Shown one piece after another: positions 46,557-64,000 of a DNA stretch of 64,000 bases. The notes under the pieces are model-generated. The model was not told where the DNA came from and ran no database searches. It saw nothing but the letters and a program-made list of their open reading frames with translations. Made by a program: the position numbers and the translations under genes. The stretch covers positions 28,129 to 92,128 of the forward strand of contig JBAZZB010000004.1 in assembly GCA_041659045.1 (NCBI GenBank), written 5' to 3'. Every line of letters begins with the position of its first letter. Positions within the stretch are counted from its first letter, which is position 1. The DNA is from Patescibacteria group bacterium (GTDB lineage: Bacteria; Patescibacteriota; Patescibacteriia; SG8-24; DYFX01).

Positions 46557-49500
46557 GATCCTCGTCGCCGCCCTGATCGCGTTCTTTATTGTTGCCAAAC
46601 CAGCGGCAGCGCAGTTTGGAATCCCTCAAGTCGTGGTTGATCCTGGAGCAAATGCGCAACTCGGTATTGCGAATGCGAACTTGGCCGCGCAAACTGCACA
46701 AGGGACGGTACAAACGACTGATACCGTCAAGCAGTCGGCATGGCAGGTGCTCAAAACGTCGTTGACGAACACTGCGGCGCTCGCGCTTTTGAACGGTGCC
46801 AATTATTTTGCGCAAAAAGTAGCATACGACGCCGCTGTCTACCTTGCTTCCGGCGGCAGTGGTCAAAAACCATTCTTCACGACAGAAGGGCTTGGTAATT
46901 ATCTTCAAAACACCGCTGCGGACGCGGCTGGCGAAGTGCTTGGCACCCTGACGTCGGATCCTGCGAGCTTTGGAAAATACGGCATCAATCTTTGTGTTCC
47001 AAAAACACCGCAGCTTGCGTTGAATTTCAAAATCGGATTCTTGAACGGTTTGCCGGGTATTCTCGGTACAGGTGGCCCAACGCCACCGACGCCGAAGTGT
47101 TCATGGGACAGCATCTCTACCAACTGGGATTCGTTTGTCAGCCAGGATTCCTCAGAGGTTTTGGATCAGGTCGGTATCATGTTCACTCCCGGCGAAAGCT
47201 CTCTTTCGGCCGCGATCGAACTCAACAACATCGCGCTCCAGCAAATCGCCGAGAAGAACCTCGAATCGTACGGCGATTATTTGGCGAACAAAGGTTTTAA
47301 ACCGGTACGCGACTTCATTTCGCGCGACATCAAAACGCCTGCCTCGACCATTGAGAAACAGCTCGATATTTCGATGGAGCAGGGCTGGAAACAAGGAGAC
47401 CGCACCGTGGCTATTACGGGCAGTGCTTTCAATAATGCCGCGTTCGGCATTCTCCCTGCGGCGCTCCAGACCTTCGCAGGCGCGCTCTCGGAACAACTCC
47501 TGAAGAAAGTCTTCACGCAAGGCTTGATTTCGGTCAGCGACCTCATGGGCAGCAACGGCGATCAGGCGCTCAGCTTCGGTGCTTCGCCGCCCGCGGGTGG
47601 ACGCGCTTCCGCAGAGCTCGCCAACGCCTCTCTTTTGACACCGAAGATTTTGTCAATCACCAATTATAACGAATTGACGGATTTTGCGACCTGTCCGACG
47701 AGCGGCAATACGACCAATCATTGCGTGATCGATACGCAGTTCTATAACGCCGTCAGCCGTGCCGATCAAGGACAAGCCATGACCGTTCGCCAGGCCGTTC
47801 AGCAAGGATTCCTGAACCGCGGTTGGCAGTTGCTTCCGCTTTCGCACCGCAAAAACCTTGAGACAACCTGTTACGGAGAAGCGTTCTGCTATTCCAATCT
47901 CGTGAAGTTGCGCCTCGCGCGCGTTCTGCCGATCGGTTGGGAAATGGCGGCCAACTCGCCGTTCAATGATGTGAATCGTCCCGTCACGCTTGGCGAAGCG
48001 ATGGATCGTTTTGAAGACTGCCCGCGCGACCCCTCCGGAGGCGTCGACGAGACGAGATTGCCCGACCCGCTGCACCCGTGGTGCCACATGGTCGATCCGG
48101 AATGGGTCTTGAAGTACCCGTCCGCCATTTGCCGCCAGCAGGCACCCGGCCCGACGCTCCTCTCGCCGCAGTCCTCAGCACGTGCTGAAAGCTGTGTGGA
48201 CGTGACCTCGTGCATTTCTCAAGATGCGTCTGGAAACTGCGTGGGCGGCTACGGCTACTGCGTCCGTGAAAAGGGTGTGTGGAAGCTTGATGCCGACGCT
48301 TGCCCCGCCCAGTACTCAAGCTGCACTGTCTACAACCGCGCTGATGGCGCGACATTTGCGTTCCTTGCGAACACGCTCGATGCGGGTCCGTGCAATTTAC
48401 AAAATGCCGGTTGCCGCCAGTACAGCCTCTCCACGAACTCAGTACCAAACGGAAGTTTTGAAGATCTTTTGGCTGGTCAGCCTCGCGACTGGACGCTTTC
48501 CGCCGGTGCGCGCCTTCATCGTTCCGGCACGCTTTCTTCGCATGGTGTAAATGCGGTCGGAGTCCTTGCTGGCAATGGTGCGAGTGTGCGGATCCCGTCC
48601 TTGATGCCTGGGAAGAGCTATGCCATTTCCGCAGGCGTCGTCCAAGAACTCGAAGGAACTTCAGCCGTTGGAACGATCCGTCTTACGTTCTTCAAAGCTG
48701 ATGGTACCCCGGTTGATACGTCGACACTCTCAACGACGTGTGAAAGCGAAAACCTCGGTCGCGCTGTTTCGCTTGATATCGCAACGACGGTTCTTGGATA
48801 TCAGAATGGCTCTTGCACGGTTACGACCCCTCCCGGTACGAATTCGGCGCTCTTGGAAATCAGTTCAAGTGCTCCTGCTGCGGGTAACCGCACGTGGTTC
48901 GATGCGCTCGGTGTCTTCGGGGAAGGATTCTCCACTTCACCCTATGACGGCATCTTCTTGAACAGCCAAGCAACGACCTGTTCCTCAGACGATGCTGGTT
49001 GCACCGAATTTGTCCGTGTTTCGACGGGGACGTTGAACTTGGTGCGCAACTCAGGCTTCGAAGAAGCAAGCACTGCGACGAACCGCGCCTTGTTCTGGAA
49101 CCTGGATCCGGCACGGTACAACCACGACACGTTCGTTGGTTCGCAAGGTGCTTCGTCCGTCACGCTCTCGCCGACGCCGGTGAGCCAGGATGTCTACGGT
49201 GTGCTCTCTGACGCTTCGTATAGCTTCTCAGTCGCCACGCGTCACTCCGGAACGGGCGCGGCACCTAACGCGCTTGCGACGATTCAGTTGTACGACACGA
49301 GTCCGACGCCTCAGGCCGTTTCACCGGTTACGGTCGATGGCTGCACGCTTTCTGGCTCATCCATGCAGCTCAATTTGGCTGTGGGGAACGAGTTCCAGAA
49401 CACGACGTGCTCGTTTACGACACCTTCCGATATCGGATACGCCAGAATCATTCTCACATCCAACTCTCCGACCGAGGACGTGTTGGCAGACGCCGTGCAA

Positions 49501-52500
49501 CTTGAACTCTCCGTTGGTGCGACCGCCTATCATGACGGCTATGCAAGTTCGGCGCAGCACGTGAACTTGAAGAAGGCTCCTGTCGGGCTCGACTGCTCTG
49601 GCGATGATCGCTCCGCTGAGTGCAGCAAGTACGCCCCTTCCTGCCGTCGCGACGAAGTCGGTTGTAACGCATACAACCCGATTGATGGCGGTACGGCTAT
49701 TACGGCAGTCACCACATCAAACGATGCTTGCCCTGTCGCCTGCGCTGGCTACGACACGTTCCGCCAGGAGCCGACGCAGTTCAACGAGTCGCGTTTCCCG
49801 CTCTTCTTGATTCCGAAGAGTGCGGAAGTTTGCACGGCCAACGAAGCAGGCTGCACCGAATTCACCAATATTGAAAAGCTCGCGCAAGGCGGCGAGTCGC
49901 GCGAATATTTCACGTACCTGCGCCTCTGCACCAAGCCGGACGATCAATCCGGTACCTACTATACGTGGGAAGGCAACGATGTGCGCGGATACCAACTCCG
50001 TTCGTGGTCGTTGCGCCGCAGCAACAGCACGTCGGTCATCAACGACTCCGACCCGACGGGTGGAACAGCGCCGTGTACGAAGCTCGCGTATGACGCAGCG
50101 GGCCAACCGCGCTGCGCCGATGACGCAGCAAGCGTTTTGGCTGCTTCCTGTACCAGAACGGACATCTCCTACAATCCCGACTGCCGCGAATTCTACGATG
50201 TTGACGGTAATATTCACTACCGCCTCTACTCGAAGACGATTCTCTCGACGGACAGCTGCCGCGAATACCGCATCACCAAGAGTTCGGAGACGGAATGCCG
50301 CGACCATGGCGGTCGCTGGCAGAACAACGAATGCCGCTACCTCGCCTACGCGCCGGAGAGCGCCTCTTGCGCTGCGACTGCTAAGGACTGCCGCGCGTAT
50401 TCCGGCAATGCTTCTCGTAACGTGCGTGTGATCGTCACGAACACCTTTGAAGTCGGAACGACGGAAGGTTGGACGGCGGCTCCAGGCGGCGGAAGCACGT
50501 CCGATGTCGTGAACAGTAACGAAGCTGTTTCGGCTGGCGGTCACTCGCTGAAAGCGACACGTGCGAACGTGACGAGCAATGTTTCTGGTCAGATCCGCAA
50601 AGGAAAATCATACCTCCTCACGTTCTGGGCTAAGGGCACAGGTGATTTGTCGGCACACTTGAGCCAAGCCGGCGATGAAAGCTTTACGTTTAATCGCACG
50701 ACCTCCACAGAATCACCAGTCAACCTGACGACGGAATGGCGCCCGTACCAGATTGGTCCGGTCGAAGCGATTAATGCTCCAGAAACAACTGAACAATTGA
50801 TCTTCGAGCGCCTCGGTGGGGGAGCGCCACTCTTCTTCCTTGATAACATCGAGCTTCGTGAGATCACTGACGATGTCTACTTGATTGAAGAATCGTGGGA
50901 GACACCGCTTGTCTGCGATCAGACGCCTTCTGGCGCTTCTTCACCGCAGTACATGCTCGGCTGCCGCGCCTACAAAGACCGAAGCAACACACAGTCGACG
51001 TTCAAGTCGTTTGAAAAACTGTGCCGCCCTGAAGCGGTCGGTTGCGAAGCTCTGTATGACACGAGGAACTCGGCGTCTCCGTTCGCGCAGACCTTCCGAG
51101 CCGTCTGTACGATCGCGGCCTCCTGTGTGCCTGGCTCTGGTTTGACGTGTCCGTGCGCTGTTGATGGCGCGACGGTCTGTCAGGTAACGAGAGGGGAGAC
51201 GAGCTGCCGGTATGACATCAACGACGATGTTCCGGCTTCACGCGTGAGCCCTACTGGCGACACCGTTCGCGTTTCTCCTGACGGCGTTGAGTATCTCGTG
51301 AACGACCTTCGCTATCGCTGCGATTCCGATGCGATCGGTTGTACCGCGATGGGCGACAAGCATATGAACAGCGCGCGCGACGCCGTTGATACTTGGAGCA
51401 CGGTGTATCTCCGCAACGTGCCGTCCGACTACGCGCGCACCCTCTGCAACGCGCCGGAACAATACTGCCAGGCCTACACGAAAAAAGCCGACGCATCGCC
51501 GGTCTTCTTCAAGGATCCTGAAGCGCGCATTTGTGAATTCCGTGATGGTGCCGCTGCGGGAAGCCGTGGTTGGTTCAAGAAGGGGACAAGCGATCCGTGC
51601 GATCCGACCTACCTTGAATCGGGTGACCGCTACGGCATCTGGAAGAACTCCGACGCGGCCTACGACGGCTGGGCGGGTGTCTGTTCTCCGCAGCACGACA
51701 TGTGTAAAGAGTTCATTGATCCGGTCGCAACGTCGTCCTCCTTCCCGAACGGAACGCCGTATTACGCGATTTTCAACGATCGCCTGGACACCAAGACGTG
51801 TCAGAACCGCGTGAGCTTGAATGAGTCGCCGTCGGGCGCGAACGCCGCTTCTGCCTGCGTCCTCTTCTGGCAGACAGATAACCTGACCAAGATCTACAGC
51901 GCTACGGCGACGTACGCCCTCTCCGATTCTCAGCGCGGTGCGCTCGTCGCTCCGCAACCAGGCGGTGCACTCAGTGATTCCAACACCATCATCCGCGTGC
52001 AACGTGATCGCCAGTGCGGCGAATGGCTTGATTGCCGCTCGCGCCGAACCGTCTTCAATGCTTCGACGGGTCAGTATCAAAACGTCTGCACGTCCTACAG
52101 CTTGTGCGCCGAATTCGAGCGTATCGGCAATACGACGCGCTGTGTCCGTTATGTCGAAAGCAGCTATTCGGGCACGACGCTCACGCCGGATATTTACTCG
52201 GCGCGCACGGTCGGATCGAAAGGTATGGATTACTCCGGTCTCGCGATTCCGAACCGCTATCCGGTGGACGAACTCGTGACCGTGAACGTTGGAGCGAGCG
52301 TTACGAAGCCGGATCTGCGACTCGTCTACGTCGGAGGCACGTGTAACGGTGCTTACGGAACATTCTGCGGTCCGGCTGATGACCAAGGCAGTTGCTTGGG
52401 TCCGGCTGGCAGCAGATTGTGTGTGCACCCGATCGACGGAGGTCGCCTCATTACATCAGAAGCACAGCTCAACCAACCGCAAATCGTCTCCGGTTATCCC

Positions 52501-55401
52501 GGTGCTTCTTGCCGCGCGTATCCGCAGGAGAACGCGCCGTTCCCGTCAAAAGTTGCCGATCCGAATGGCTGGGATTACGAGGCGGCTGAACTCAATGGCG
52601 GTAACCCCGTCCTGATCAGCCCGAGTCCGAGCTTCGCTGGCGCGAATGTCTGTCAGCGCCGTTTGGTGAACGGTGTCGAAGTATCGAGTTGTGAATGCAA
52701 CTACTTGGTCGCGAACTACGGTTCCGATAAGAAATATTTCCCAGCGGGCAGTTCGGATATCCCGAGCGGGTACTGCACTGGCGGCTTGTATGCCGGATAT
52801 GAGTGCGATCCTCTTGCTTCGGGTGCACGTTCACTCAACAATCCTTCCTGCTGCAGCAAGACCGCTGACAGTTCTTCTGGATTGCTTGCGAGCGGTTGCA
52901 ATGACGGCGCGCAGTGTATTCGTGTCAAAAAAGTGGATCGCGTGGTCGGCTATGAGGGTCAGTGTCTTGAGCGCGACATGACGCGCCCGATTAATGGCAC
53001 GTCCGACCAGTACGCGTGTTTGACCTGGCGCCCAGTTGGTCTGATCGGCGGCTCTCGCGACATCTACAACCAGAATCAGTCTGCGGGTTACTTCGCTTCC
53101 GCTGACCGCCGCTTCTACTGCGTTGGTGACCAACCGGCTTGGACGACGCATCTGGACATCAATACGACAGAGGACTTCGACAGCCGTGACAACATTGATG
53201 GCACGCTTGTTGGTCCGTACGACCAGTACACCAATAAGTTCTTTGGCACCGGTAAGGTCACGAATGGTTCATCGTCTGCAACTTGGCGCGCCGATTGTCA
53301 GAAAGCCGGTCCGGGGCAGTGGTGCCAGTGGCCGGGTATTTCTCGAGGTTCGCACGCGCCGCAATTGCGAGGTGACGGAACTGCGGTGAATTGTACGAGT
53401 GATAGCGATTGCTCGACGAACTACTACTGTAACGGGGACGCGACGACGTCTGATCGCAGCTGTGTTGCAGTCGCGGCGACGTATCACATCAATACGGAGG
53501 CCGTTGGTATTCTTGGTTGCTATGAAGTGGCCGACGAAGGTTCGGTCGACATGACCTACATCGACTTCCCATACATCGGCCCTCCGCTCTATCAGCAGCA
53601 GCTGAAGAGCATCTACTTCCAGGTTACTGACGATATCTACGACTACATCGCTCCGTTGCAGCCGGGCGAAATTCAGGTTCCGGATGACGCTACTGGCTCG
53701 ACGTATGATTTGTCGAAGATCGCTACGAACCCACACCAGAACATTATTGGCGACTGCAACGACGAAACTGACGACAACATTGATAATGAGGATAACGACG
53801 GTATCGATTCGGCCCCCGTTTCAGAGGCAGAAGTGGTCAGTTCGGATGCCGCGCGCAGTAAGAGTGTTTTCCACCTGAACGACACGAACAGCTGGAAAGT
53901 CGATCCTTCTGATGGCGAAGGAACTATTCTGCTTGCAGCCGCGTTCGACTCGAACGGTCTTCTGAAAACCATTCGCGTCGCCGCAAGCGATTCGGGCGAT
54001 GAAGGATCCTTCGGTATCAAGAGTATGGGCTTCCAGTTCAAGCCCGGTTGCGAACAGATCGCGCAGGTCGATCAACCTGGCGAGTTTGGCGCGACGGCGG
54101 CTTTCACGGATGTGGTCAATAACTTCCGAACCTTTGGAGGCTTTGGAGGAGAAACTGATATGTCTGGTCAAGCGTGGCAGCATGAATACGCTTGCAAGCC
54201 GTATGGTGCGATCGGTGCGATCTCGCAACCTCCTCCGAATAAACCGTGGACGTATGTTGCGGCGCGTCTCGCGACTGATGCTGAGCAGTGCACGGTGACG
54301 GACTTCACGAGGGGTGCAAATTACTCACTCGATATCCCCGCGGATTTCCTCGACACAGACTCGTTGCGACGACTCTTCCGCAAGGTCTACGCCGTGTGGG
54401 ACTACGTAAAGCTGAACTTCACGGCGGGCGGCAACACGTACACGTCGGTACCAAACCTGGCTGGCGACGCGTACTACAACGAAACGGGCACGGTTGATCC
54501 TACGACGCTCATGAACCGCAATGGTGCGGGAGCAATCTTCGGCAAAGTCTGGTATCCGCCGATCGTGGCTGCCGTCGATACGAGTAACTGCGATTCGAAC
54601 GGACGCTGTAAGATCTCGCGTACCAACGCATTGACGGTCAATGGCAAGTCGCAAGGTCTCTTGCTCGGCGCGGACGGCTCACTCAGCGTAACGGCCAAGT
54701 TCTACGCTTGGGCCTCGCACAACTCGATGCCGATTCTCCAGCGCACGGTGCTCTGGGGCGACTACACTGCGAAAGAACCGCCTGCGAAGGGCTGGTACAA
54801 AAACCAGAAACCGTTCTGCTCGCCGGATATTTCCGACGCGAACGCGGTAGGCGAGTGTTCGACCAACGGTATGACTTGCGATACGGACGCTGATTGTCTC
54901 GGTTCCGGCACGTGTGGCAAGGGTATCGGCAATCACTTCGGCAATACCCCGGGTGCCTGTAACGCGGGTACGTTCCAGTTCGACCATACCTACACCTGCA
55001 CGCTCCGTGATCTGCAAACGATGGCAGCGTGCACGGGTCCTGGCGATGCCGCTGACAACGCGCCGTGCTATCGCGTGCTCGACGGCGCTCCGACCTGCGT
55101 CTACCGACCGAAAGTTCAGGTCGTCGACAACTGGGGTTGGTGCAACTGTACTGGTGATGGTTGCGCGTACACGCTTAGCAACAACGGCGCGTATCGCGAA
55201 GGTTGCTCGTTGACGAACCCTCCGGCAAACGCAAAACCGTGGACCGAGTATGTCGGCGAAATCCGTCTTGCGCCTCGCGCCCAGGACGCGGCTGCCTTCG
55301 TTCCTGGTGGCGGCGGTCCTGGCGGGGGAGGAGGCGGCGGCTCGTTCGATCCTAGCGTCCTTGAACAGATCTTGAGCGGTGGCGGAATGTTCAGTCTTTG
55401 A
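46534..55401 (+). CDS. giant (2955 aa) secreted Cys-rich surface protein with at least three CBM4/9-like carbohydrate-binding modules and a Gly-rich C-terminus
   Basis: Signal peptide ILVAALIAFFIVAKPAAAQ. Three recurrences of the N-G-S-F-E...W...G-K-S-Y...(F/S)-W-A pattern, at roughly 48430, 49040 and 50440. More than 100 Cys. C-terminal PGGGGPGGGGGGGSF. Confidence 0.7.
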   Translation: MPTRTPTKILVAALIAFFIVAKPAAAQFGIPQVVVDPGANAQLGIANANLAAQTAQGTVQTTDTVKQSAWQVLKTSLTNTAALALLNGANYFAQKVAYDAAVYLASGGSGQKPFFTTEGLGNYLQNTAADAAGEVLGTLTSDPASFGKYGINLCVPKTPQLALNFKIGFLNGLPGILGTGGPTPPTPKCSWDSISTNWDSFVSQDSSEVLDQVGIMFTPGESSLSAAIELNNIALQQIAEKNLESYGDYLANKGFKPVRDFISRDIKTPASTIEKQLDISMEQGWKQGDRTVAITGSAFNNAAFGILPAALQTFAGALSEQLLKKVFTQGLISVSDLMGSNGDQALSFGASPPAGGRASAELANASLLTPKILSITNYNELTDFATCPTSGNTTNHCVIDTQFYNAVSRADQGQAMTVRQAVQQGFLNRGWQLLPLSHRKNLETTCYGEAFCYSNLVKLRLARVLPIGWEMAANSPFNDVNRPVTLGEAMDRFEDCPRDPSGGVDETRLPDPLHPWCHMVDPEWVLKYPSAICRQQAPGPTLLSPQSSARAESCVDVTSCISQDASGNCVGGYGYCVREKGVWKLDADACPAQYSSCTVYNRADGATFAFLANTLDAGPCNLQNAGCRQYSLSTNSVPNGSFEDLLAGQPRDWTLSAGARLHRSGTLSSHGVNAVGVLAGNGASVRIPSLMPGKSYAISAGVVQELEGTSAVGTIRLTFFKADGTPVDTSTLSTTCESENLGRAVSLDIATTVLGYQNGSCTVTTPPGTNSALLEISSSAPAAGNRTWFDALGVFGEGFSTSPYDGIFLNSQATTCSSDDAGCTEFVRVSTGTLNLVRNSGFEEASTATNRALFWNLDPARYNHDTFVGSQGASSVTLSPTPVSQDVYGVLSDASYSFSVATRHSGTGAAPNALATIQLYDTSPTPQAVSPVTVDGCTLSGSSMQLNLAVGNEFQNTTCSFTTPSDIGYARIILTSNSPTEDVLADAVQLELSVGATAYHDGYASSAQHVNLKKAPVGLDCSGDDRSAECSKYAPSCRRDEVGCNAYNPIDGGTAITAVTTSNDACPVACAGYDTFRQEPTQFNESRFPLFLIPKSAEVCTANEAGCTEFTNIEKLAQGGESREYFTYLRLCTKPDDQSGTYYTWEGNDVRGYQLRSWSLRRSNSTSVINDSDPTGGTAPCTKLAYDAAGQPRCADDAASVLAASCTRTDISYNPDCREFYDVDGNIHYRLYSKTILSTDSCREYRITKSSETECRDHGGRWQNNECRYLAYAPESASCAATAKDCRAYSGNASRNVRVIVTNTFEVGTTEGWTAAPGGGSTSDVVNSNEAVSAGGHSLKATRANVTSNVSGQIRKGKSYLLTFWAKGTGDLSAHLSQAGDESFTFNRTTSTESPVNLTTEWRPYQIGPVEAINAPETTEQLIFERLGGGAPLFFLDNIELREITDDVYLIEESWETPLVCDQTPSGASSPQYMLGCRAYKDRSNTQSTFKSFEKLCRPEAVGCEALYDTRNSASPFAQTFRAVCTIAASCVPGSGLTCPCAVDGATVCQVTRGETSCRYDINDDVPASRVSPTGDTVRVSPDGVEYLVNDLRYRCDSDAIGCTAMGDKHMNSARDAVDTWSTVYLRNVPSDYARTLCNAPEQYCQAYTKKADASPVFFKDPEARICEFRDGAAAGSRGWFKKGTSDPCDPTYLESGDRYGIWKNSDAAYDGWAGVCSPQHDMCKEFIDPVATSSSFPNGTPYYAIFNDRLDTKTCQNRVSLNESPSGANAASACVLFWQTDNLTKIYSATATYALSDSQRGALVAPQPGGALSDSNTIIRVQRDRQCGEWLDCRSRRTVFNASTGQYQNVCTSYSLCAEFERIGNTTRCVRYVESSYSGTTLTPDIYSARTVGSKGMDYSGLAIPNRYPVDELVTVNVGASVTKPDLRLVYVGGTCNGAYGTFCGPADDQGSCLGPAGSRLCVHPIDGGRLITSEAQLNQPQIVSGYPGASCRAYPQENAPFPSKVADPNGWDYEAAELNGGNPVLISPSPSFAGANVCQRRLVNGVEVSSCECNYLVANYGSDKKYFPAGSSDIPSGYCTGGLYAGYECDPLASGARSLNNPSCCSKTADSSSGLLASGCNDGAQCIRVKKVDRVVGYEGQCLERDMTRPINGTSDQYACLTWRPVGLIGGSRDIYNQNQSAGYFASADRRFYCVGDQPAWTTHLDINTTEDFDSRDNIDGTLVGPYDQYTNKFFGTGKVTNGSSSATWRADCQKAGPGQWCQWPGISRGSHAPQLRGDGTAVNCTSDSDCSTNYYCNGDATTSDRSCVAVAATYHINTEAVGILGCYEVADEGSVDMTYIDFPYIGPPLYQQQLKSIYFQVTDDIYDYIAPLQPGEIQVPDDATGSTYDLSKIATNPHQNIIGDCNDETDDNIDNEDNDGIDSAPVSEAEVVSSDAARSKSVFHLNDTNSWKVDPSDGEGTILLAAAFDSNGLLKTIRVAASDSGDEGSFGIKSMGFQFKPGCEQIAQVDQPGEFGATAAFTDVVNNFRTFGGFGGETDMSGQAWQHEYACKPYGAIGAISQPPPNKPWTYVAARLATDAEQCTVTDFTRGANYSLDIPADFLDTDSLRRLFRKVYAVWDYVKLNFTAGGNTYTSVPNLAGDAYYNETGTVDPTTLMNRNGAGAIFGKVWYPPIVAAVDTSNCDSNGRCKISRTNALTVNGKSQGLLLGADGSLSVTAKFYAWASHNSMPILQRTVLWGDYTAKEPPAKGWYKNQKPFCSPDISDANAVGECSTNGMTCDTDADCLGSGTCGKGIGNHFGNTPGACNAGTFQFDHTYTCTLRDLQTMAACTGPGDAADNAPCYRVLDGAPTCVYRPKVQVVDNWGWCNCTGDGCAYTLSNNGAYREGCSLTNPPANAKPWTEYVGEIRLAPRAQDAAAFVPGGGGPGGGGGGGSFDPSVLEQILSGGGMFSL

Positions 55402-55405
55402 TTCT

Positions 55406-58288
55406 ATGAATTTTTTCCAGCGCCTTCACGTCAAACTTAACCTCCTCTTCTCCGGGAAGAGGAGGATTTGGCGTCTGATGGCGCTCGGTGCATTGGCTGT
55501 CGTTGGCTTCGCGCTCCCTGGTGTTGTACAAGCGGCTGGCTGTGGCTTGAGCAGTCCTGAAATCTGTATCGCGACGATCTTCGTCTGGATCTTCCAGAGA
55601 CTCACGGCGCTCATGGGGTTCATTTTGATCATGGAGGTGGACGCGTTGATCCGTGTGGCGGGGTACTTCAACTTCGTCTCACCGGGTCCGACGGCTGTCC
55701 GTATTGGTTGGGTCGTGACGCGCGACTTGGCGAACATGTTCTTCATCGTGTTCCTCATGATCATCGCCTTCAGCACGGTCATCGGGTACTCCAAGTACCA
55801 CTATGAGCAGACGTTGAAGAAACTTCTGATCATGGCGGTTATCATCAACTTTTCGAAGACGATCGTTGGTTTGATGATCGATATCAGCCAGGTGGTGATG
55901 CTCTCGTTCGTGAACGGTTTCCGTGCTGCGGCGGCGGGTAACTTCATGAACGCATTCCAAATCAATAAGCTGCTCGCGCTTGGCGACGGTCCAGCCGAGT
56001 ACAATTTCGGTTTGGTGCTCGCCATGATGCTGGCCTTCATTTTGGCCGCCATCGCCGCGTGCGTCGTGCTCGTCATGCTCGTCATGCTCGTTTTCCGCGT
56101 CATCATGCTGTGGGTACTGATCATTCTCTCTCCCATCGCGTTTTTGACAGCGGCATTTCCTTTGAGCGGCGGCTACTACGCGCAATGGTGGGGCGAACTC
56201 AAAAAATACCTTATCGGCGGTCCTGTTGTCGCTTTCTTCTTGTGGTTGGCGCTGGCAACGGCGCAACAAACGGCGGGAAACCTTTCGTCTCCGCAAGAAG
56301 GCTGGGGCGTGCAATCGGCGGCCTCTGCTCAGGAAGTCGAAGGCCAAGCCACAAAGTCGCAAATCCCAAGCGAAGCCGGACGCACCGACACGATTCTCAG
56401 CATGGTGATTGTTTGCTGCATCATGTTCGCGGGTTTGAAGTTCGCGGCTGATCCGGCCATCAGCGGCTTGGCATCAGGCTTCGCTGGTAAGGTGAAAGGA
56501 AAAGCTGTTTCCGCATTGCGCGCTGGTACCGTTGGCGTTGCCGGGTATGGTTTGAAGCGCGCCGCGGAGCCTGTGATGACGACCGTCGGCAAGGGATTGG
56601 CGCGCGTGCCGCTGGTTGGTGCCGCGGGCCGCTACATGGCGCTGAAGGGAGAGGGGATGAAGAAGGCGCGTCTTGCTGGGCGTGAGAAGATGTTTGGCGG
56701 CGCGGAAGATATGGCGCGTCTCAGCCCCGGAGCCTTTACGAGGAAACTTGGCGGCTTGAAAGACCCTAGGGAGATCGACAAGTACATGAAGATCGCGAGC
56801 GCGAATCCTGATTTGATGGCGAGTCTCGCCCCAAAGGAATCAATTAATCCGCTGACAGGCAAGCGAGAGATAAAGGGTGTTGGCCGTGATGTGATGAAGC
56901 AATGGGCTTCGAGCGACAGCCCAGCTGCCGCGAAGTTCATGATGGGCGACGCGCGTTCGAAAGCTTGGTTGAAGAATGATCCGGAGCTTCTCAAGCAGAC
57001 GTATGACGGTCTGAAAGATACGGCCGAGAAGGATCCGAATCGCAAAAAAGATCTTAGTGAGTTCGAGCAGAAAATGGCTGTTCCGTTGCAGAAGAACGGC
57101 ATGTTCGGAAATATCCCGTCTGTTGTCAAAGAAAAACTCGCAGGACTTGTTCCGAAGATGTCCGCTGATGACTTTAAGGATGTCGCGGGCTCTGACATGG
57201 GCACGTTCATGGAGCACATGACGGGCAAACAGTTCCGGGAAATGGCCGTGGACGGAAAGACCGACCAGCAACTCGGCATGTCTTCTGAGCTGGCCAAAAT
57301 GCCGAAGGACAAGGCCCTCGAATTCATGCGTGAACGCGGTTTGAACGCCACCGAAGTTCCTGATTCTTGGTATTCCAACGAGCACGTTGCGGATTACGTC
57401 TTGGCCTCCACGTCCGGCAAGGCTGAAGCACGCGGCAAAATCATGGCAGATGAGACGCGTGCGAAAGCGCTGCAAGATGCTGCGAAGCGCGGACTGTCCG
57501 GCCCGAACGCACCGACTGACGATAACAAGCGCGCGGCCGCGGCTGTGCAGGCGATGTCGGTTGGGGCTCTTAAGGTCAGCGACCTGGATGTTGGTGATGC
57601 CAGCGGCAAGACGCTTCGAGACGTGCTTAGCCGTAGTGGAGACACGGCAGCGATCGCTCGCAATATCGACAAGGACGATCCTGATCAGTTGGCTGTCGGA
57701 CGCGAAATCTTCAAGACGATCATGGGTCAAGATCCGACTCGTGCTCGCAACTTGAGCAAGAATGATCTCTATAACAAGCTCCTGCCTTCAAAAGCAGAAA
57801 TTGACGCCGCTGTCACGGCCGCCGCTGCCGCGCAAGCGGCTGGAGTAGCCCAAGTCAAAACGACTGAAAGGGAAGTTGAACGTAGGGGATTGGCGGGAGA
57901 TGCGGTGAACGTGAAGGCCGACCTTTCTGGACAACTGAAGGCGTTGCAAGACGCGATTCATGAGGATCGCCTGGCTGGACGTCCTACGGCTACAAAAGAA
58001 CAGCAGGCAGATCAGGTCGCGAAAGCGATGCAGGACCTCACGCGCGCGACAGAACAGCGTGCGAACGCTGAACAAGAATTGGCGCAGGAGATGCAGAGGC
58101 TTTCCGTTGCCAGCTCTACTGGCGGTGATGCGGCAGCGATTCAAAGCGCCGTCGACCGCTTGAAGAAAGGTATTCAAGACCTGGATTCAACGTTGGCCAA
58201 GCAGGTCGCGACAATTAAAGGTATTAAGTTCGATGAAGGTGGTGGCGGCGGTCGCAAGAACCGCGGCGGCGGGGGAGGACGCGTATGA
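55406..58288 (+). CDS. VirB6/TrbL-like polytopic membrane protein with roughly 550-aa hydrophilic coiled-coil C-terminal extension
   Basis: Signal-like N-terminus, then 6 or more TM helices with the Gly/Ala-rich VirB6/TrbL pattern (MLAFILAAIAACVVLVMLVML, SPIAFLTAAFPL). Long Ala/Lys/Glu-rich tail ending GGGGGRKNRGGGGGRV. Confidence 0.6.
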   Translation: MNFFQRLHVKLNLLFSGKRRIWRLMALGALAVVGFALPGVVQAAGCGLSSPEICIATIFVWIFQRLTALMGFILIMEVDALIRVAGYFNFVSPGPTAVRIGWVVTRDLANMFFIVFLMIIAFSTVIGYSKYHYEQTLKKLLIMAVIINFSKTIVGLMIDISQVVMLSFVNGFRAAAAGNFMNAFQINKLLALGDGPAEYNFGLVLAMMLAFILAAIAACVVLVMLVMLVFRVIMLWVLIILSPIAFLTAAFPLSGGYYAQWWGELKKYLIGGPVVAFFLWLALATAQQTAGNLSSPQEGWGVQSAASAQEVEGQATKSQIPSEAGRTDTILSMVIVCCIMFAGLKFAADPAISGLASGFAGKVKGKAVSALRAGTVGVAGYGLKRAAEPVMTTVGKGLARVPLVGAAGRYMALKGEGMKKARLAGREKMFGGAEDMARLSPGAFTRKLGGLKDPREIDKYMKIASANPDLMASLAPKESINPLTGKREIKGVGRDVMKQWASSDSPAAAKFMMGDARSKAWLKNDPELLKQTYDGLKDTAEKDPNRKKDLSEFEQKMAVPLQKNGMFGNIPSVVKEKLAGLVPKMSADDFKDVAGSDMGTFMEHMTGKQFREMAVDGKTDQQLGMSSELAKMPKDKALEFMRERGLNATEVPDSWYSNEHVADYVLASTSGKAEARGKIMADETRAKALQDAAKRGLSGPNAPTDDNKRAAAAVQAMSVGALKVSDLDVGDASGKTLRDVLSRSGDTAAIARNIDKDDPDQLAVGREIFKTIMGQDPTRARNLSKNDLYNKLLPSKAEIDAAVTAAAAAQAAGVAQVKTTEREVERRGLAGDAVNVKADLSGQLKALQDAIHEDRLAGRPTATKEQQADQVAKAMQDLTRATEQRANAEQELAQEMQRLSVASSTGGDAAAIQSAVDRLKKGIQDLDSTLAKQVATIKGIKFDEGGGGGRKNRGGGGGRV

Positions 58289-60036
58289 TCGCCACTGACG
58301 TCCTGCAGCGGAAAATCGATGCGCTGCCGGAGCCGGTACTCGACTACCTGTATTCGGAGCGCGCTGGCGAACTCAACTTGCAGGTGATTGAGAAGCATCA
58401 GCTGACGGAGAAGCAGGAGGAGACGTATTTTCAGATCCTGCGCGAGCTGTTCGTCAAAGATTTGCCGCTTGAACGCTTGATCATCGAGCTCAAAGAGCGG
58501 CTCGAGCTTGATGATACGAAAGCGAAAGCACTCGCGATTGATATCGCTGGGTTTCGCTTGTTGCCGCTCGACAAGTGGCTTGCGGATATCAGCACGTTTT
58601 TGCGAGCGCTTGGTGCTGACCCGAAAACATTCCCAAATCTGCGCGTTGCGATCGCGCGCCGCACGGTTGATGAGGCGGCTGCGGAGATCGCGACGTCCGT
58701 GGCCTCGACGCCGGACGACCACTTGCACAACAGATTAGAGAACGTCGTTGAATCGGTGTTGGCTGGTGTACGCACCGAAGCGCAAGCGGCGGATGTGTTG
58801 ACGCGCCCGGAAAAAATTGGCGGCGTCGGTCTTGAACCGAAAGAAGCCGAGCGCGTTCTTGAAGAAATTCGCGAAGAATCGCGCAGTGTCATTTTGGATC
58901 AAAGTGTTCCGGAAGTTGAAAAAAAAGAAGAAGAAGCGCCAGTCGCCGCGGTTTCCGCTCCCGTCAAAGCGAAAGACGAAGGTCTTACGCTGACGCCAGA
59001 GGACGCAGTTGAACTCGCTCAATTCAAAAAAACCGCACCATCAAAAGATATTGATACGATGGTGCAGGAGATTTATTTTGCCTCCGGCCTCGCGACAGAA
59101 GACGAAGCGATGGCGAAACGCGTCAAAACGGTTATTGGCAACCGCTTGCGCGATGTGCGCGATCAAATGGAAACGCTCGAGATCATGACCCAGCCGAAGG
59201 AGCTGGGTGGCTTGAGCATGAGTCAAGACTCAGCGCGCGCTTTGCTCAACACGATTCAATCGCGGTTGCGAAAAACGGATGCGGTCGCGCAGGCCAAGGT
59301 GCAGACGGAAAAAGCGAAATGGGTTGAAACCGAGCGCGTGCAAAAGGCGCAGAACGAAACGCAAACCAACGTCGATCAAAAGACGGAGCTTGAGCGTTTG
59401 TATCAGAGCATTGTCACGAAATCGAAGAAGGCGACGGCTAACGCGCCTACGCAGCCAACTGTCGTGGCGCCGGTACTCGATACCAAATCTGCCGCTCCGG
59501 CTAATCTTCCGATTTCTGCAGCGAGCCCTGTTCCACCCGACTTCAGAGCACCCGCTTCTCCGCCTGAGCCGCCAGCTCCCGTGGTCGCGCGTCCGCCGCT
59601 TCCACCCCCCGCCACAATAGTGAAACCGACCCCGGCTGTCCCAACCGCCCCGACTTTTAGTGCGACGAGCTTTGCTCAGCGACCCAAGCTTGAAGACGTT
59701 AAAGCTGCGCCAAAGTTGACGGGGCCTGTCGAAGAGCTGCGTGCGATCACAATCGTCGATTTCCGTCGCCTTTCCAAGGATCCGAAGGAAGCGTGCATGA
59801 AGATCAAGGATAAAATTGATCTTCTGGGCGATCAGTCCTATACCCGCCGTAGCGAAGGGATTTCCGCGTGGACCACGTCGGAAGTAACGCGTACGTACCT
59901 TGAATTGATGCGCGAAAGCTTAAACGGCACGCCTCTCCCCGAGGCAATTTCAGCCCGAGAAGCCGCTAAAAAACCGGTGCTGACGGCTGATGAGTTCCGA
60001 GCCGTGGCCGAGCTGAGCCGTCAGATGCGGTATTAA
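58285..60036 (+). CDS. soluble Pro-rich hypothetical protein of T4SS-like operon
   Basis: 583 aa, no TM. Central PPDFRAPASPPEPPAPVVARPPLPPP. It overlaps the upstream stop (ATGA). Confidence 0.55.
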   Translation: MIATDVLQRKIDALPEPVLDYLYSERAGELNLQVIEKHQLTEKQEETYFQILRELFVKDLPLERLIIELKERLELDDTKAKALAIDIAGFRLLPLDKWLADISTFLRALGADPKTFPNLRVAIARRTVDEAAAEIATSVASTPDDHLHNRLENVVESVLAGVRTEAQAADVLTRPEKIGGVGLEPKEAERVLEEIREESRSVILDQSVPEVEKKEEEAPVAAVSAPVKAKDEGLTLTPEDAVELAQFKKTAPSKDIDTMVQEIYFASGLATEDEAMAKRVKTVIGNRLRDVRDQMETLEIMTQPKELGGLSMSQDSARALLNTIQSRLRKTDAVAQAKVQTEKAKWVETERVQKAQNETQTNVDQKTELERLYQSIVTKSKKATANAPTQPTVVAPVLDTKSAAPANLPISAASPVPPDFRAPASPPEPPAPVVARPPLPPPATIVKPTPAVPTAPTFSATSFAQRPKLEDVKAAPKLTGPVEELRAITIVDFRRLSKDPKEACMKIKDKIDLLGDQSYTRRSEGISAWTTSEVTRTYLELMRESLNGTPLPEAISAREAAKKPVLTADEFRAVAELSRQMRY

Positions 60037-60072
60037 GGGGCGGTGCTAGGCAAACTGTGGTAAAATAAAGCC

Positions 60073-60501
60073 ATGTCCCAGTTCGTCGTTCCGCAATTCA
60101 TCGACGTCGAGGATAAGATCCTCGGCCCTATCACGACGCGCCAATTCGCCATCTTGATGGTCGATGGCCTCGTGATGTTTATCTTGTACAAGCTGCTCAG
60201 CTTGCCGTTCGCAATCTTGTTTGATGTGTTGCTGCTGACGTCGGGTATTGTCTTGGCCTTCGTACGCATTAACGGTCAGCCGTTCCACTATTTCCTGCTG
60301 AACGTCTTTCAAACGTGGAAGCGCCCTCATGTGCGCGTGTGGAACAAGGAAATGAGCGACGCGGAAATTATCGCGTTGTCCAAAGTCGAATTGCCGCCCC
60401 CACCCGTCGCCAAGCCGTATAAGGAAGCGCTGACGACGTCGCGTCTTTCCGAATTGGCCCTGATCGTGAACACGGGAGGCGTCTACAAACCCGAGGATTG
60501 A
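60073..60501 (+). CDS. PrgI-family (VirB3-like) small membrane protein
   Basis: MSQFVVPQFIDVEDKILGPITTRQFAILMVDGLVMFILY matches the PrgI/VirB3 N-terminal motif. Two TM helices. Confidence 0.65.
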   Translation: MSQFVVPQFIDVEDKILGPITTRQFAILMVDGLVMFILYKLLSLPFAILFDVLLLTSGIVLAFVRINGQPFHYFLLNVFQTWKRPHVRVWNKEMSDAEIIALSKVELPPPPVAKPYKEALTTSRLSELALIVNTGGVYKPED

Positions 60502-60520
60502 CCGTCTTCCAGGAGGATCT

Positions 60521-61225
60521 ATGGCGCAGAAACAAGAACAACTGATGCAGAGTAAAAAACTCGCGGGTGGCAAGCCAGCCAACTCCACCCAGCGGTTTTT
60601 GGACGTCGCCGAAATCCGCGAAGACGTCGTCGTCATGAAGGACGGCACGATGCGCGTCGTGCTTCTCGTTTCAAGCCTGAACTTCTCTTTGAAATCAGAA
60701 GACGAACAGGAGGCGATTATTCAGGGATACATTTCGTTCCTGAATTCGCTCGACGCGCCGATCCAAATTCAAATCCAATCGCGCAAACTGAACGTCGACG
60801 ACTATTTGAACCGACTCAAGGAGCAGGAGAAGACACAAACCAACGAATTGCTGCGCTCCCAGATCAACGACTACCGACAGTTCGTCAAAGAGCTGGTCGA
60901 GCTCGGCGAGATCATGCAAAAAAAGTTTTTCGTGATCGTGCCGTACAATCCGGCGTCTTCGAAGCGCAAGGGGTTCTTCTCTCGCATGTCGGAAGTCCTG
61001 ACGCCGCTCGTTTCGGCGCGTTTGCGCGAAGAGCAGTTCCGCCAGCGCAAGAAGGACGTCATGGTGAAGGTCGATTCAGTCCGGGCCGGCCTCAACTCGA
61101 TGGGGCTGACCAGCGTCATGCTTGATACGCAAGGGCTGATCGAGCTGTACTACACCGCCTACAATCCGCAATCGATGGAGACGCAGAAGCTCGAAAAAAT
61201 GGACGCGTTACGCGTCGAAGCCTGA
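60521..61225 (+). CDS. VirB4-type ATPase, N-terminal domain (CagE_TrbE_VirB-like), terminated by in-frame TGA
   Basis: TQRFLDVAEIREDVVVMKDGTMRVVLLVSSLNFSLKSEDEQEAIIQGYISFL matches the conserved N-terminus of Gram-positive-type VirB4 (PrgJ/TcpF-like). Same reading frame as the next ORF. Confidence 0.65.
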   Translation: MAQKQEQLMQSKKLAGGKPANSTQRFLDVAEIREDVVVMKDGTMRVVLLVSSLNFSLKSEDEQEAIIQGYISFLNSLDAPIQIQIQSRKLNVDDYLNRLKEQEKTQTNELLRSQINDYRQFVKELVELGEIMQKKFFVIVPYNPASSKRKGFFSRMSEVLTPLVSARLREEQFRQRKKDVMVKVDSVRAGLNSMGLTSVMLDTQGLIELYYTAYNPQSMETQKLEKMDALRVEA

Positions 61226-61228
61226 CCT

Positions 61229-63154
61229 ATGGCCTTCAATCCCACCACGGCCACGCGTGAAGCTGCTGCTCCGAAAGAGGAGAAGCAGAAAATGTCGGCT
61301 GAAGAAAAAAAACGCCTCGCGCAGGAAGAGCGCATCAAGCTTGAAGAGGAGCGCATCTACCGCAAGGGTGTCGTCACGCTGCGCGACTTGATCGCGCCGG
61401 CGGCCTTTGAGGTCAAATCAAACCTGGTGCGCTTGGGCGATCTCTACGCGCGCACGGTCTTCGTCGTCACCTATCCGAGATATCTTTCACTTGGCTGGTT
61501 CACGCCGATCATCAACTTTTCGGCAACGATGGACGTCGGCATGTTCTTCTATCCCGTCCAGCCGGAAATCATTTTGAAACAATTGAAGAACAAGGTCGGT
61601 ATTTTGGAGGCGCAAATTTTGGGTGACGCTGAAAAAGGCGCCGCGCGCGATCCGCTTCGTGAAACGGCGCTGCGCGACATCGAAAAACTGCGCGACGACC
61701 TGACGCAGGGGATCGAGCATTTTTTCCAATTCGCGCTGTACGTCACGGTGTTCGCGCCTTCGGAAAAGGAACTCGATGATCTGACCAACCAGGTTGAGGG
61801 CATGTTCGGTTCGAAGCTGATCTACACCAAGCGCGTGCTCTACCAGTCGGAGCAGGGTTTCAACTCGACGCTGCCGTCCGGCAATGACGAGCTCATGATC
61901 ACCTTCAACATGAACACGAGCCCGATCGCTTCGGGTTTCCCGTTCGTGTCCGCCGACCTGACATCCGACAACGGCATTCTTTACGGCATCAACCGCCACA
62001 ACAACAGCCTGATTCTCTTCGATCGTTTTTCGCTGCAAAACGCCAACGCTGTCGTTTTCGCAACGTCCGGTGCTGGTAAAAGCTACACCGTGAAGCTTGA
62101 AGTGTTGCGTTCGCTCATGATCGGCACCGAGGTCATCATCATCGACCCGGAAATGGAATATAAGCACCTCTCCGACGCGGTCGGCGGTACGTATATCAAC
62201 ATTTCGCTGGCTTCCGAATCGAAGCTCAACATTTTCGATCTACCGCGCCCGATGGGGGAGGAAGTACGCTCCGAAGACATCATCCGCTCCGCCGTCATTA
62301 CGGTGAAAGGCCTCATGCGCATCATGTTCGGAAGCGTTACGACGTCCGAAGACTCGATCATCGACCGCGCTCTGCTCGAAACGTACGCCAAGAAAGATAT
62401 TGTTCCCGGTGTCGACCTCGCGACGATCGAGCCGCCGATTCTTTCCGACTTCCAACAGGTGCTCGAGGGTATCACTGGTACGGAAGATTTGCAGATCAAG
62501 CTTCGCAAATACACCGAAGGCACCTTCTCCGGACTCCTCAACTCGCCGACGACGATCGAGATGAAGAACAAGCTCGTGGTCTTCAGCGTGCGCGATCTTG
62601 AGGACGAACTGCGCCCACTCGGCGTCTACACCATCGTCAACTACATCTGGAACGTCGTCCGCTCGGAACGCAAAAAGCGTATTCTTGTGATCGATGAAGC
62701 ATGGTGGCTCATGCAAAACGACGACTCGGCGAAGTTCATTTTCGCCCTGGTCAAGCGCTGCCGAAAATACTTCCTCGGTGTCACAACGATCACACAGGAC
62801 GTCAACGACTTCTTGCGCTCGCCCTATGGTCAAGCCATCGTCACCAACTCCGCGCTCCAGGTGCTCCTCAAGCAGTCTCCAGCCTCAATCGATCTCGTTC
62901 AAAAGACATTCTTGCTGACAGAAGGCGAGAAGTACCTGCTGCTTGAAGCGGGCGTCGGTGAAGGTATCTTCTTTGCTGGGTCGAGACACGCCGCCATCAA
63001 AGTGGTCGCCTCCTACTCAGAAGATCAGATCATCACGTCTGACCCGCGGCAATTGCTCGAAATCGAGAACGCCAAGAAAGAACTCGATGAGCAACTGCTC
63101 CAGGCCTCCGAGAATTCTGGGACGACCGCGAATCCTGCTCAGCAACCCGCATAA
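61229..63154 (+). CDS. VirB4-type ATPase, central and C-terminal ATPase domain
   Basis: YPRYLSLGWFTPIIN, Walker A FATSGAGKSYTV, Walker B ILVIDEAWWLM. ATG lies 1 codon after the in-frame TGA of the previous ORF. Confidence 0.8.
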   Translation: MAFNPTTATREAAAPKEEKQKMSAEEKKRLAQEERIKLEEERIYRKGVVTLRDLIAPAAFEVKSNLVRLGDLYARTVFVVTYPRYLSLGWFTPIINFSATMDVGMFFYPVQPEIILKQLKNKVGILEAQILGDAEKGAARDPLRETALRDIEKLRDDLTQGIEHFFQFALYVTVFAPSEKELDDLTNQVEGMFGSKLIYTKRVLYQSEQGFNSTLPSGNDELMITFNMNTSPIASGFPFVSADLTSDNGILYGINRHNNSLILFDRFSLQNANAVVFATSGAGKSYTVKLEVLRSLMIGTEVIIIDPEMEYKHLSDAVGGTYINISLASESKLNIFDLPRPMGEEVRSEDIIRSAVITVKGLMRIMFGSVTTSEDSIIDRALLETYAKKDIVPGVDLATIEPPILSDFQQVLEGITGTEDLQIKLRKYTEGTFSGLLNSPTTIEMKNKLVVFSVRDLEDELRPLGVYTIVNYIWNVVRSERKKRILVIDEAWWLMQNDDSAKFIFALVKRCRKYFLGVTTITQDVNDFLRSPYGQAIVTNSALQVLLKQSPASIDLVQKTFLLTEGEKYLLLEAGVGEGIFFAGSRHAAIKVVASYSEDQIITSDPRQLLEIENAKKELDEQLLQASENSGTTANPAQQPA

Positions 63155-63159
63155 CGCCT

Positions 63160-63762
63160 ATGACCCCACGCCGCCGCGCCATTCTGATCATCACGCTCGC
63201 CGTGCTCCTGCTCGGCGTGATTATCGTTGCCGTTATTCTCGTGACGCGCGCTCTTCCGAAAAAAACAACGCCGATTCCCGTTGGGCAAGATACGAGCGTG
63301 CCGACACCGGAGCAGGAAGCGGCAGCGTCAATCATTAAAAATCCTCTGGTTCCCGCCGTGACGCAGCCTGTCGGCCGAACGGCTGCTGCGCAGATGGGCG
63401 AACTGTTTGCCGAACGCTATGGCAGCTATTCGAATCAGGGCGATTTCCAGAACTTGCGCGACCTCTTGCCCGTCATGACCGCCAAGTATCGTTTGCAGAC
63501 GGAAACCTCGCTCGCCGCCGCCAAGCCGCAGCAGGGACAGACGTTCGAAGGTGTGACGAGCGTGAAAATTTCCAGCGAAGTGCGCACCTATAATGAAGCA
63601 GGTGGAACCGCGGTTGTGGCCGTGACACTTCAGCAGGAAAAAGTTTCCGGCACGTCAACCGTCGTCGGTTACCGTACGCTCCGCATGGAGTTGAAGAAAG
63701 TCGGCGAAGACTGGCGTGTTGACTCCTCGCGCTGGGAAAACGAATTGACACCCGCAAGCTGA
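63160..63762 (+). CDS. bitopic hypothetical protein (possible VirB8-like periplasmic component)
   Basis: 200 aa, N-terminal TM, then a roughly 165-aa soluble domain. Position and topology resemble VirB8/TcpC-like proteins, but no motif was recognised. Confidence 0.45.
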   Translation: MTPRRRAILIITLAVLLLGVIIVAVILVTRALPKKTTPIPVGQDTSVPTPEQEAAASIIKNPLVPAVTQPVGRTAAAQMGELFAERYGSYSNQGDFQNLRDLLPVMTAKYRLQTETSLAAAKPQQGQTFEGVTSVKISSEVRTYNEAGGTAVVAVTLQQEKVSGTSTVVGYRTLRMELKKVGEDWRVDSSRWENELTPAS

Positions 63763-63770
63763 ATCCCGTA

Positions 63771-63800
63771 GGACGCGCCCGTATGATCGGGCGCGTTTTT
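63771..63800 (+). terminator. Rho-independent terminator (cgcgcccgtatgatcgggcgcg + T5)
   Basis: 8-bp GC stem and a T-run at the end of the T4SS-like operon. Confidence 0.65.
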
Positions 63801-64000
63801 GATTTTATTTTTCCTCTTGAATGCATCGCTTGCGGCGCGTCGGGTTCGCATTGTTGCGAAAGCTGCTTGTCCTCCGTGCCGATGTTGCCAAGATTTTGGA
63901 AAGAACCGGAGCTACGCGCCTCGGCGGCTTTTGCCTACGGGCATCCACTTGTACGTCGCTTGTTGCATGATCTGAAATTCGAACAATGGTCGTGTGCCGA
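63783..64000 (+). CDS. comF: ComF(C)-family competence protein, N-terminal part (continues beyond window end)
   Basis: In the frame starting at ATG 63783: ...FPLECIACGASGSHCCESCLSSVP...AAFAYGHPLVRRLLHDLKFEQ. The double CxxC zinc finger and LKF motif match ComFC/amidophosphoribosyltransferase-like competence proteins. Confidence 0.55.
   Translation, partial: MIGRVFDFIFPLECIACGASGSHCCESCLSSVPMLPRFWKEPELRASAAFAYGHPLVRRLLHDLKFEQWSCA

Follow-up and report, generated by a model that had tools for sequence, protein, structure and literature searches.

A type IV secretion system (T4SS) gene cluster lies in the 64,000-nt stretch of DNA from a Patescibacteria group bacterium analysed here (contig JBAZZB010000004.1 of assembly GCA_041659045.1; the whole stretch is hereafter referred to as the window), and two consecutive open reading frames (ORFs) of this cluster, ORF1 and ORF2, carry sequences related to different parts of the VirB4 ATPase. 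They are separated only by a TGA triplet and one further codon. Coordinates are positions in the window and features are on the + strand unless stated otherwise. The two genes, their junction and the motifs on which the argument relies are the following:

60512..60516, + strand: Shine-Dalgarno (SD) sequence GGAGG of ORF1, 4 nt upstream of the start, with an anti-SD duplex of -10.3 kcal/mol
60521..61225, + strand: trsD-like gene (ORF1), start ATG at 60521, 234 codons, stop TGA at 61223-61225
61223..61231, + strand: gene junction, made up of the TGA stop, a CCT spacer (61226-61228) and the virB4 start ATG at 61229
61229..63154, + strand: virB4 (ORF2), start ATG at 61229, 641 codons, stop TAA at 63152-63154
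62060..62083, + strand: Walker A motif ATSGAGKS, VirB4 residues 278-285, from the translation
62681..62698, + strand: Walker B motif ILVIDE, VirB4 residues 485-490, from the translation

Re-reading of the window sequence reproduced exactly the layout given in the initial annotation, i.e. ORF1, TGA, CCT, ATG and ORF2 in one shared frame, the two starts being 708 nt (236 codons) apart. ORF2 is predicted to encode a TrsE-like VirB4 ATPase of the CD1110 family. Its product scored 350 bits against the NCBIfam CD1110 model NF045971 (E = 2.6e-104; positions 166-729 of 752), above the curated cutoff of 325 bits, and 98.9 bits against the Pfam P-loop_TraG family, and the solved VirB4 ATPase domain (4AG5) aligned to residues 244-603 (E = 1.3e-45), whereas residues ~26-243 correspond to the second part of the VirB4 N-terminal domain. 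The domain split proposed in the initial annotation was thus right in placing the Walker A and B motifs in ORF2 but not in equating ORF2 with the ATPase domain alone, part of the N-terminal domain being also encoded there. Because ORF2 keeps some 220 residues of the N-terminal domain, the break in VirB4 falls inside this domain and not between it and the ATPase domain.

The ORF1 protein consists of a conserved core (residues ~17-142) followed by a helical C-terminal extension (residues ~143-234), and from its sequence we predict that it is a free-standing, TrsD-like version of the N-proximal subdomain of the VirB4 N-terminal domain. Its match to the CD1110 model was limited to profile positions 11-135, and positions 93-233 were matched in the NCBIfam Mbov_0397 VirB4 model (VirB4_plasma). 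Against the NCBIfam TrsD/TraD model NF041427 it scored 30.4 bits (E = 3.2e-7; positions 21-142 of 201), well short of the curated cutoff of 200 bits, and it therefore stands outside the narrow Bacillota-plasmid TrsD/TraD subfamily defined by NCBI, as a remote homologue. Alignment of the ORF1 family profile to TrsD of pSK41 with hhalign (119 columns, 20-139 versus 30-156; E = 1.9e-5, probability 78%) suggests a weak but specific homology. A local Pfam scan of ORF1 gave no match, though its relatives carry precomputed PF26593 assignments. The PDB sequence search with the family profile returned no match at E <= 1, and the link to TrwK came from the fold search only: in the Foldseek comparison of the ORF1 AlphaFold model with the PDB each of the best 12 matches was a chain of TrwK/VirB4 from the R388 T4SS (probability 0.92-1.0; E from 5e-4). 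The model itself is of moderate quality, with a mean predicted local distance difference test (pLDDT) score of 62 and a template modelling (TM) score of ~0.39 to TrwK. The gene order agrees with a TrsD assignment, since a protein of ~200-240 aa is encoded between the VirB3-like gene and virB4 (PrgI at 60073-60501, ORF1, VirB4), an order that recurs in the 79 related loci described below.

The two predicted proteins complement each other along a fused VirB4. As a reference we used the single-chain CD1110 VirB4 of 754 aa encoded by the Carboxydocella plasmid pCCELLA01, of which ORF1 residues 17-142 cover residues 5-129 (34% identity, E = 3e-18, BLASTP) and ORF2 residues 26-612 cover residues 158-750 (E = 3e-64). 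Both ORFs together span residues 5-750 of the fused protein without overlap, and the CD1110 profile gives an equal picture, its first ~165 positions being absent from ORF2 and positions 11-135 being those matched by ORF1. ORF2 lacks exactly the piece that ORF1 supplies and, therefore, the two genes stand in a gene fission/fusion relationship to single-chain VirB4, ORF1 not being an extra paralogue. The window proteins share the ATPase domain, the Walker motifs and the architecture of the N-terminal domain with single-chain CD1110 VirB4 and with TrwK/VirB4 of R388; those are one polypeptide whereas the window encodes two, and the ~28-residue connector of the fused VirB4 is replaced in the window by ~90 extra residues at the C-terminus of ORF1 and ~25 at the N-terminus of ORF2. 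To our knowledge, every other T4SS class carries the ORF1-type subdomain within one chain, and fission in an ancestor of this lineage would therefore be the parsimonious direction of the event.

Stand-alone homologues of ORF1 number more than 3500. Among the best 120 of the 3552 homologues retrieved in our homology search (61-94% identity) the length was 225-241 aa throughout, and HMMER, run exhaustively on 1.84 billion cluster representatives (50% clustering), gave 2489 matches, the best 150 of which, inspected down to 34% identity, included no fused ORF1-ATPase protein, their lengths of 116-443 aa being too short for an ATPase. We also surveyed 80 loci from species-representative genomes of Patescibacteria/Minisyncoccota, including Uhrbacteria and Magasanikbacteria (55-96% identity; the nearest ones, at up to 96%, belonging to metagenome-assembled genomes of these groups). 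The window itself is not in the counts and one locus ends before ORF2, leaving 79 informative loci, in all of which the ORF1 homologue ends at a stop codon and a separate ORF2 homologue comes next. The stop is TAA in 39 loci, TGA in 21 and TAG in 19, the trsD-virB4 spacer ranges from 1 to 166 nt, and, relative to ORF1, 29 loci have ORF2 in frame 0, 22 in frame +1 and 28 in frame +2; the N-terminus of the ORF2 homologues is nearly always MAF or MAI. The five closest loci (L001-L005, 90-96% protein identity, one of them from the closed 1.17-Mb genome CP129476.1) keep the TGA-NNN-ATG arrangement, NNN being TCT, CGT or TTT in place of the CCT of the window, and the next relatives are already out of frame, with TGA-T-ATG in L006 (88%) and TAG-AC-ATG in L007 (85%). 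Several frame-0 loci (L032, L046 and L080) contain extra in-frame stops within the spacer. For both ORF1 and ORF2 the ratio of nonsynonymous to synonymous divergence (dN/dS) against six relatives was 0.02-0.12, with dS values of 0.6-1.7, and both genes are thus under strong purifying selection. The comparison of orthologous loci proposed in the initial annotation therefore reveals two separate genes with varied spacing, i.e. a split that is old and stable rather than a lesion, and the heading under which the locus had been filed, an interrupted VirB4 reading frame, is not tenable. Because adjacent genes share a frame one-third of the time and the frames of the related loci are distributed 29/22/28, the common frame of ORF1 and ORF2 does not exceed chance; their in-frame spacing is a coincidence, to be expected one time in three, that a small sub-clade has inherited.

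The same division of VirB4 is found in Bacillota plasmids. Staphylococcus aureus pSK41 encodes, in this order, the 135-aa TrsC in the VirB3-like position, the 227-aa TrsD, whose annotation places it in the TrsD/TraD family, and the 672-aa TrsE, with a spacer of 14 nt. ORF2 aligned to TrsE (E = 2e-39, 23% identity) with its residue 53 on TrsE residue 36, covering TrsE residues 36-617, and the break point is therefore common to the window and pSK41. The pSK41/pGO1 systems (MPF_FATA class, pGO1 subclass) are thus alike in gene order, break point and protein sizes (135/227/672 aa versus 142/234/641 aa in the window), but pSK41 is a conjugative plasmid whose cluster includes a relaxase and a coupling protein, whereas the window locus is chromosomal and neither protein was found among the window ORFs examined; the sequence similarity between the proteins of both systems is also remote. 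On a Pontibacillus megaplasmid a 274-aa gene overlaps a gene for a 621-aa CD1110 VirB4 by 11 nt, and the order VirB3-like, TrsD, VirB4 is conserved from Patescibacteria to Staphylococcus and Pontibacillus.

Under the term 'split VirB4' we found nothing in the literature, the relevant work using the name TrsD. A recent study (Quinonero-Coronel et al. 2025, Microb Genom, PMC12102498) describes TrsD, remotely homologous to the N-terminus of VirB4, as a protein whose gene usually adjoins virB4 in Patescibacteria and as the most abundant T4SS component of these bacteria, with 2272 homologues of which 1664 are associated with virB4; it also reports trsD to be essential, along with other T4SS genes, in Ca. 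Southlakia epibionticum ML1. The window shares with this TrsD and VirB4 pair the phylum, the PrgI/VirB3, TrsD and VirB4 genes, a polytopic VirB6-like protein and the ksgA neighbour. The present analysis adds the stop codon, spacing and frame of the junction, which that paper does not describe, and the segment missing from VirB4, which its available part does not mention; nothing of substance separates our locus from the published pair. Since the two-gene TrsD/VirB4 arrangement has already been described across Patescibacteria and in staphylococcal plasmids, what the window holds is a known and ordinary feature of Patescibacteria T4SS loci. In this type of T4SS the divided VirB4 is the form that normally functions (PMC12102498), which leaves without support the earlier suggestion that the split has functional consequences for the whole apparatus.

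Evidence on how UGA is read in this genome comes from the gene for release factor 2 (RF2) in the window:

42483-43625: prfB (RF2), with the PCRF and RF-1 domains in the main (downstream) frame

This gene carries a classical programmed +1 frameshift site, CTT TGA C, at 42545-42551, preceded by GGAGG and reading ...GGAGGTTA CTT TGA C..., and UGA is therefore a stop codon in the genome from which the window derives, as the initial annotation had held on the grounds that RF2 is present with a UGA-containing frameshift site; the domain content of prfB is in line with this. The heptamer CTTTGAC is over-represented in the window as a whole, with 20 sites against 9.7 expected, a number reached in none of 100 shuffles, and 15 of the 20 sites lie on the - strand (e.g. 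6593, 16887, 39101 and 60884). The probable cause of this excess is a codon-pair effect (coding-strand GTC AAA G), not a signal.

We consider it very probable that the TGA at 61223-61225 is the true stop of the trsD-like gene and the ATG at 61229 the true start of virB4, and that both genes make up a natural and ancient two-gene VirB4 such as occurs in Patescibacteria and in pGO1/pSK41-type monoderm systems. The TrsD-like protein would then carry the N-proximal subdomain, and the 641-aa VirB4 the remaining N-terminal domain and the ATPase domain. Both genes would be carried by one operon transcript; no promoter-like site was detected in 59900-64000 and no + strand terminator between ORF1 and ORF2, the sole strong one following the last gene. 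The SD duplex energy in the window is -10.3 kcal/mol for ORF1 versus -0.7 kcal/mol for ORF2. Because ORF1 has a strong SD and ORF2 none, and ORF2 starts 3 nt past the stop of ORF1, ORF2 is most likely translated by termination-reinitiation: ribosomes would terminate at the UGA at 61223-61225 and reinitiate 3 nt downstream, giving roughly equimolar products. The TrsD-like and VirB4 polypeptides may then associate non-covalently to rebuild a complete VirB4 protomer, which would dock on the VirB3-like PrgI at the membrane and power the translocon, by analogy with the TrwK-TrwM pair of R388 and the predicted PrgJ-PrgI pair (reviewed in PMC12857230). The option of a VirB4 in two pieces, encoded by neighbouring and probably coupled cistrons, one of several that the initial annotation had offered, is thus the one that the comparative and complementarity data favour.

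The other explanations fare worse. A recent nonsense mutation that broke a single VirB4 gene, now decaying as a pseudogene, is suggested by the superficial look of the locus only (same frame, one stop, an ATG one codon later); it would have to be squared with a stop that all 79 related species have at the corresponding position, realised with three stop codons and in three frames, with dN/dS values of 0.02-0.12 in both halves at dS up to 1.7, and with the lack of a fused relative among the best 150 of 2489 cluster representatives and of an intact fused orthologue in the 79 loci, and we regard its probability as negligible. Just as little credit can be given to a false stop arising from an assembly or sequencing error, which five independent assemblies (L001-L005) sharing TGA, then 3 nt, then ATG, and the presence of TAA or TAG at the homologous position in more distant relatives, speak directly against. 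The results on the 79 loci, on homologue lengths and on dN/dS therefore exclude a recent lesion, an assembly error and a required readthrough, and with them three of the options in the initial annotation, readthrough or recoding in its obligatory form among them.

A facultative form of the latter deserves separate mention, namely a programmed UGA readthrough that yields a minor fused TrsD-VirB4 isoform of 876 aa beside the separate proteins in the frame-0 sub-clade made up of the window and L001-L005. The in-frame TGA-NNN-ATG arrangement kept in this sub-clade would suit such a mechanism, as would the C that follows the stop in the window, UGA followed by C being a comparatively leaky stop context in E. 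coli. Nevertheless, neither the base after TGA (C or T) nor the spacer codon (CCT, TCT, CGT or TTT) is conserved, L006 and L007 are already out of frame at 88% and 85% identity, the frame-0 loci L032, L046 and L080 place further in-frame stops in the spacer, and RF2 is present with its UGA-dependent autoregulatory frameshift. Nor do the loci show the excess of frame 0 that selection for readthrough would be expected to leave (29/22/28, chi-square p = 0.58). This makes the isoform very improbable; if it did exist, it would represent a facultative single-chain VirB4 beside the two separate subunits. Somewhat less improbable, though still unlikely, is that the TrsD-like protein acts as an independent accessory factor, i.e. 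a diverged paralogue serving for example as an assembly chaperone or regulator, and not as the piece that completes VirB4. Its ~90-aa C-terminal extension, absent from fused VirB4, and a weak internal resemblance of ORF1 residues 9-49 to residues 157-212 of the fused protein (E = 0.45), which hints at an old internal repeat, could be read in this way. Against it stand the absence from ORF2 of exactly the ORF1 segment, with no overlap on either the fused protein or the CD1110 profile, the adjacency and order of the VirB3-like, trsD and virB4 genes from Patescibacteria to Staphylococcus and Pontibacillus, and the essentiality of trsD together with other T4SS genes in strain ML1 (PMC12102498). 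In a separate and likewise very improbable reading, the helical extensions peculiar to the split form, at ORF1 residues ~143-234 and ORF2 residues ~1-50, might constitute a dedicated, so far undescribed heterodimerisation module.

Several points weigh against the two-gene VirB4 that we favour or against parts of it. The tie of ORF1 to the staphylococcal TrsD family is remote (30 bits against a cutoff of 200; 78% in hhalign), the predicted structure that leads to TrwK is modest (mean pLDDT 62, TM about 0.39), and TrsD homologues of Gracilibacteria are reported not to adjoin virB4 (PMC12102498). In addition, coupling by reinitiation cannot be general in the trsD-virB4 family, because SD strength upstream of ORF2 is at background across relatives and some spacers are 82-166 nt long and contain hairpins. 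A conserved SD within the end of ORF1 had been considered as a coupling signal and was discarded, the mean upstream of ORF2 being -2.5 kcal/mol versus -2.7 kcal/mol in the internal control.

The trsD-like and virB4 genes are embedded in a compact array, whose remaining members and flanking elements are listed below:

45165-45944: KsgA (rRNA adenine dimethylase), beside the T4SS cluster
46534-55401, same orientation as the T4SS genes and directly upstream of them: giant protein of 2955 aa, signal-like hydrophobic segment at the N-terminus, carbohydrate-binding domain CBM_4_9
55379..58288, + strand: polytopic membrane protein of 969 aa, whose first 360 residues hold about 7-9 hydrophobic segments (hydropathy scan)
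58285..60036, + strand: soluble protein of 583 aa, no hydrophobic segments and without significant family match (Pfam, NCBIfam)
60073..60501, + strand: PrgI-family (VirB3-like) membrane protein of 142 aa, hydrophobic hairpin at residues 20-67
63160..63762, + strand: single-pass membrane protein of 200 aa, transmembrane segment at residues 3-35, family match sub-threshold
63770..63812, + strand: intrinsic-terminator-like hairpin (63770-63799, 12 pairs, 8 of them G-C) and T-run, closing the operon

From at least 46534 to 63762 the genes are tightly packed, with overlaps or with gaps of <= 36 nt: the gene for the 2955-aa CBM_4_9 protein overlaps both its neighbours by 23 nt, that of the 969-aa protein overlaps the next gene by 4 nt (ATGA), and the 200-aa membrane protein gene, the last of the cluster, starts 5 nt past virB4. 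The PrgI assignment relies on Pfam PF12666 (E = 8.3e-10; 39.5 bits against a 27-bit cutoff). The 969-aa protein, which had no Pfam or NCBIfam match, is a candidate VirB6-like translocon subunit by position and topology only, and the 2955-aa protein is possibly a T4SS component of the surface or adhesin type. According to PMC12102498, PrgI/VirB3 and VirB6 homologues are typical neighbours of virB4 in Patescibacteria, as is ksgA, in origin-proximal regions. The related locus L004 sits at 1.03 Mb of a closed 1.17-Mb genome.

In about nine or ten species the trsD-virB4 spacer is 82-166 nt long and filled by a near-perfect hairpin, with minimum free energies of -30 to -68 kcal/mol. The long spacers lie at the following approximate coordinates of the respective loci:

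L040: 4688-4773
L044: 4694-4779
L046: 4703-4795
L051: 4706-4794
L052: 870-976
L053: 4685-4766
L068: 2382-2547
L072: 4691-4835
L077: 4670-4797

The hairpin sequences differ between species and several consist of mirrored short tandem units; L046, for instance, has (AGCTTCC)n/(GGAAGCT)n, and L053 has (ACCCTAA)n. The hairpins resemble independent insertions, at one junction, of elements of the repetitive extragenic palindromic (REP) or miniature inverted-repeat transposable element (MITE) type, and might alter the relative expression of trsD and virB4. A few virB4 homologues are of unusual length: that of L003 (4697-5185) ends after 162 aa, about 140 nt from the contig end, that of L013 has 571 aa, and that of L040, possibly fused to the next gene, has 1280 aa; either errors of local assembly or genuine variation may be the cause. 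The records behind L002, L003, L005, L006, L008 and others are titled 'uncultured Gammaproteobacteria bacterium', and their T4SS loci are 80-94% identical to those of Patescibacteria/Minisyncoccota, so that these titles look like placeholder or wrong taxonomy.

An in-frame stop that separates two parts of a well-known protein is easily taken for a sign of a pseudogene or of recoding, and the locus described here, where such a stop is a normal gene boundary, advises caution in annotation. Our survey of the junction supports TrsD as a trans-acting piece of VirB4 and leaves prior knowledge unchanged, adding to the published picture that the break point is the one of pSK41 TrsD/TrsE and that VirB4 lacks exactly the segment supplied by TrsD. 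It further indicates that no particular frame or stop codon is needed at the trsD-virB4 junction and that even hairpins of about 100 nt can be inserted there, in a T4SS on which a cultivated member of the Patescibacteria is reported to depend for its epibiotic lifestyle.

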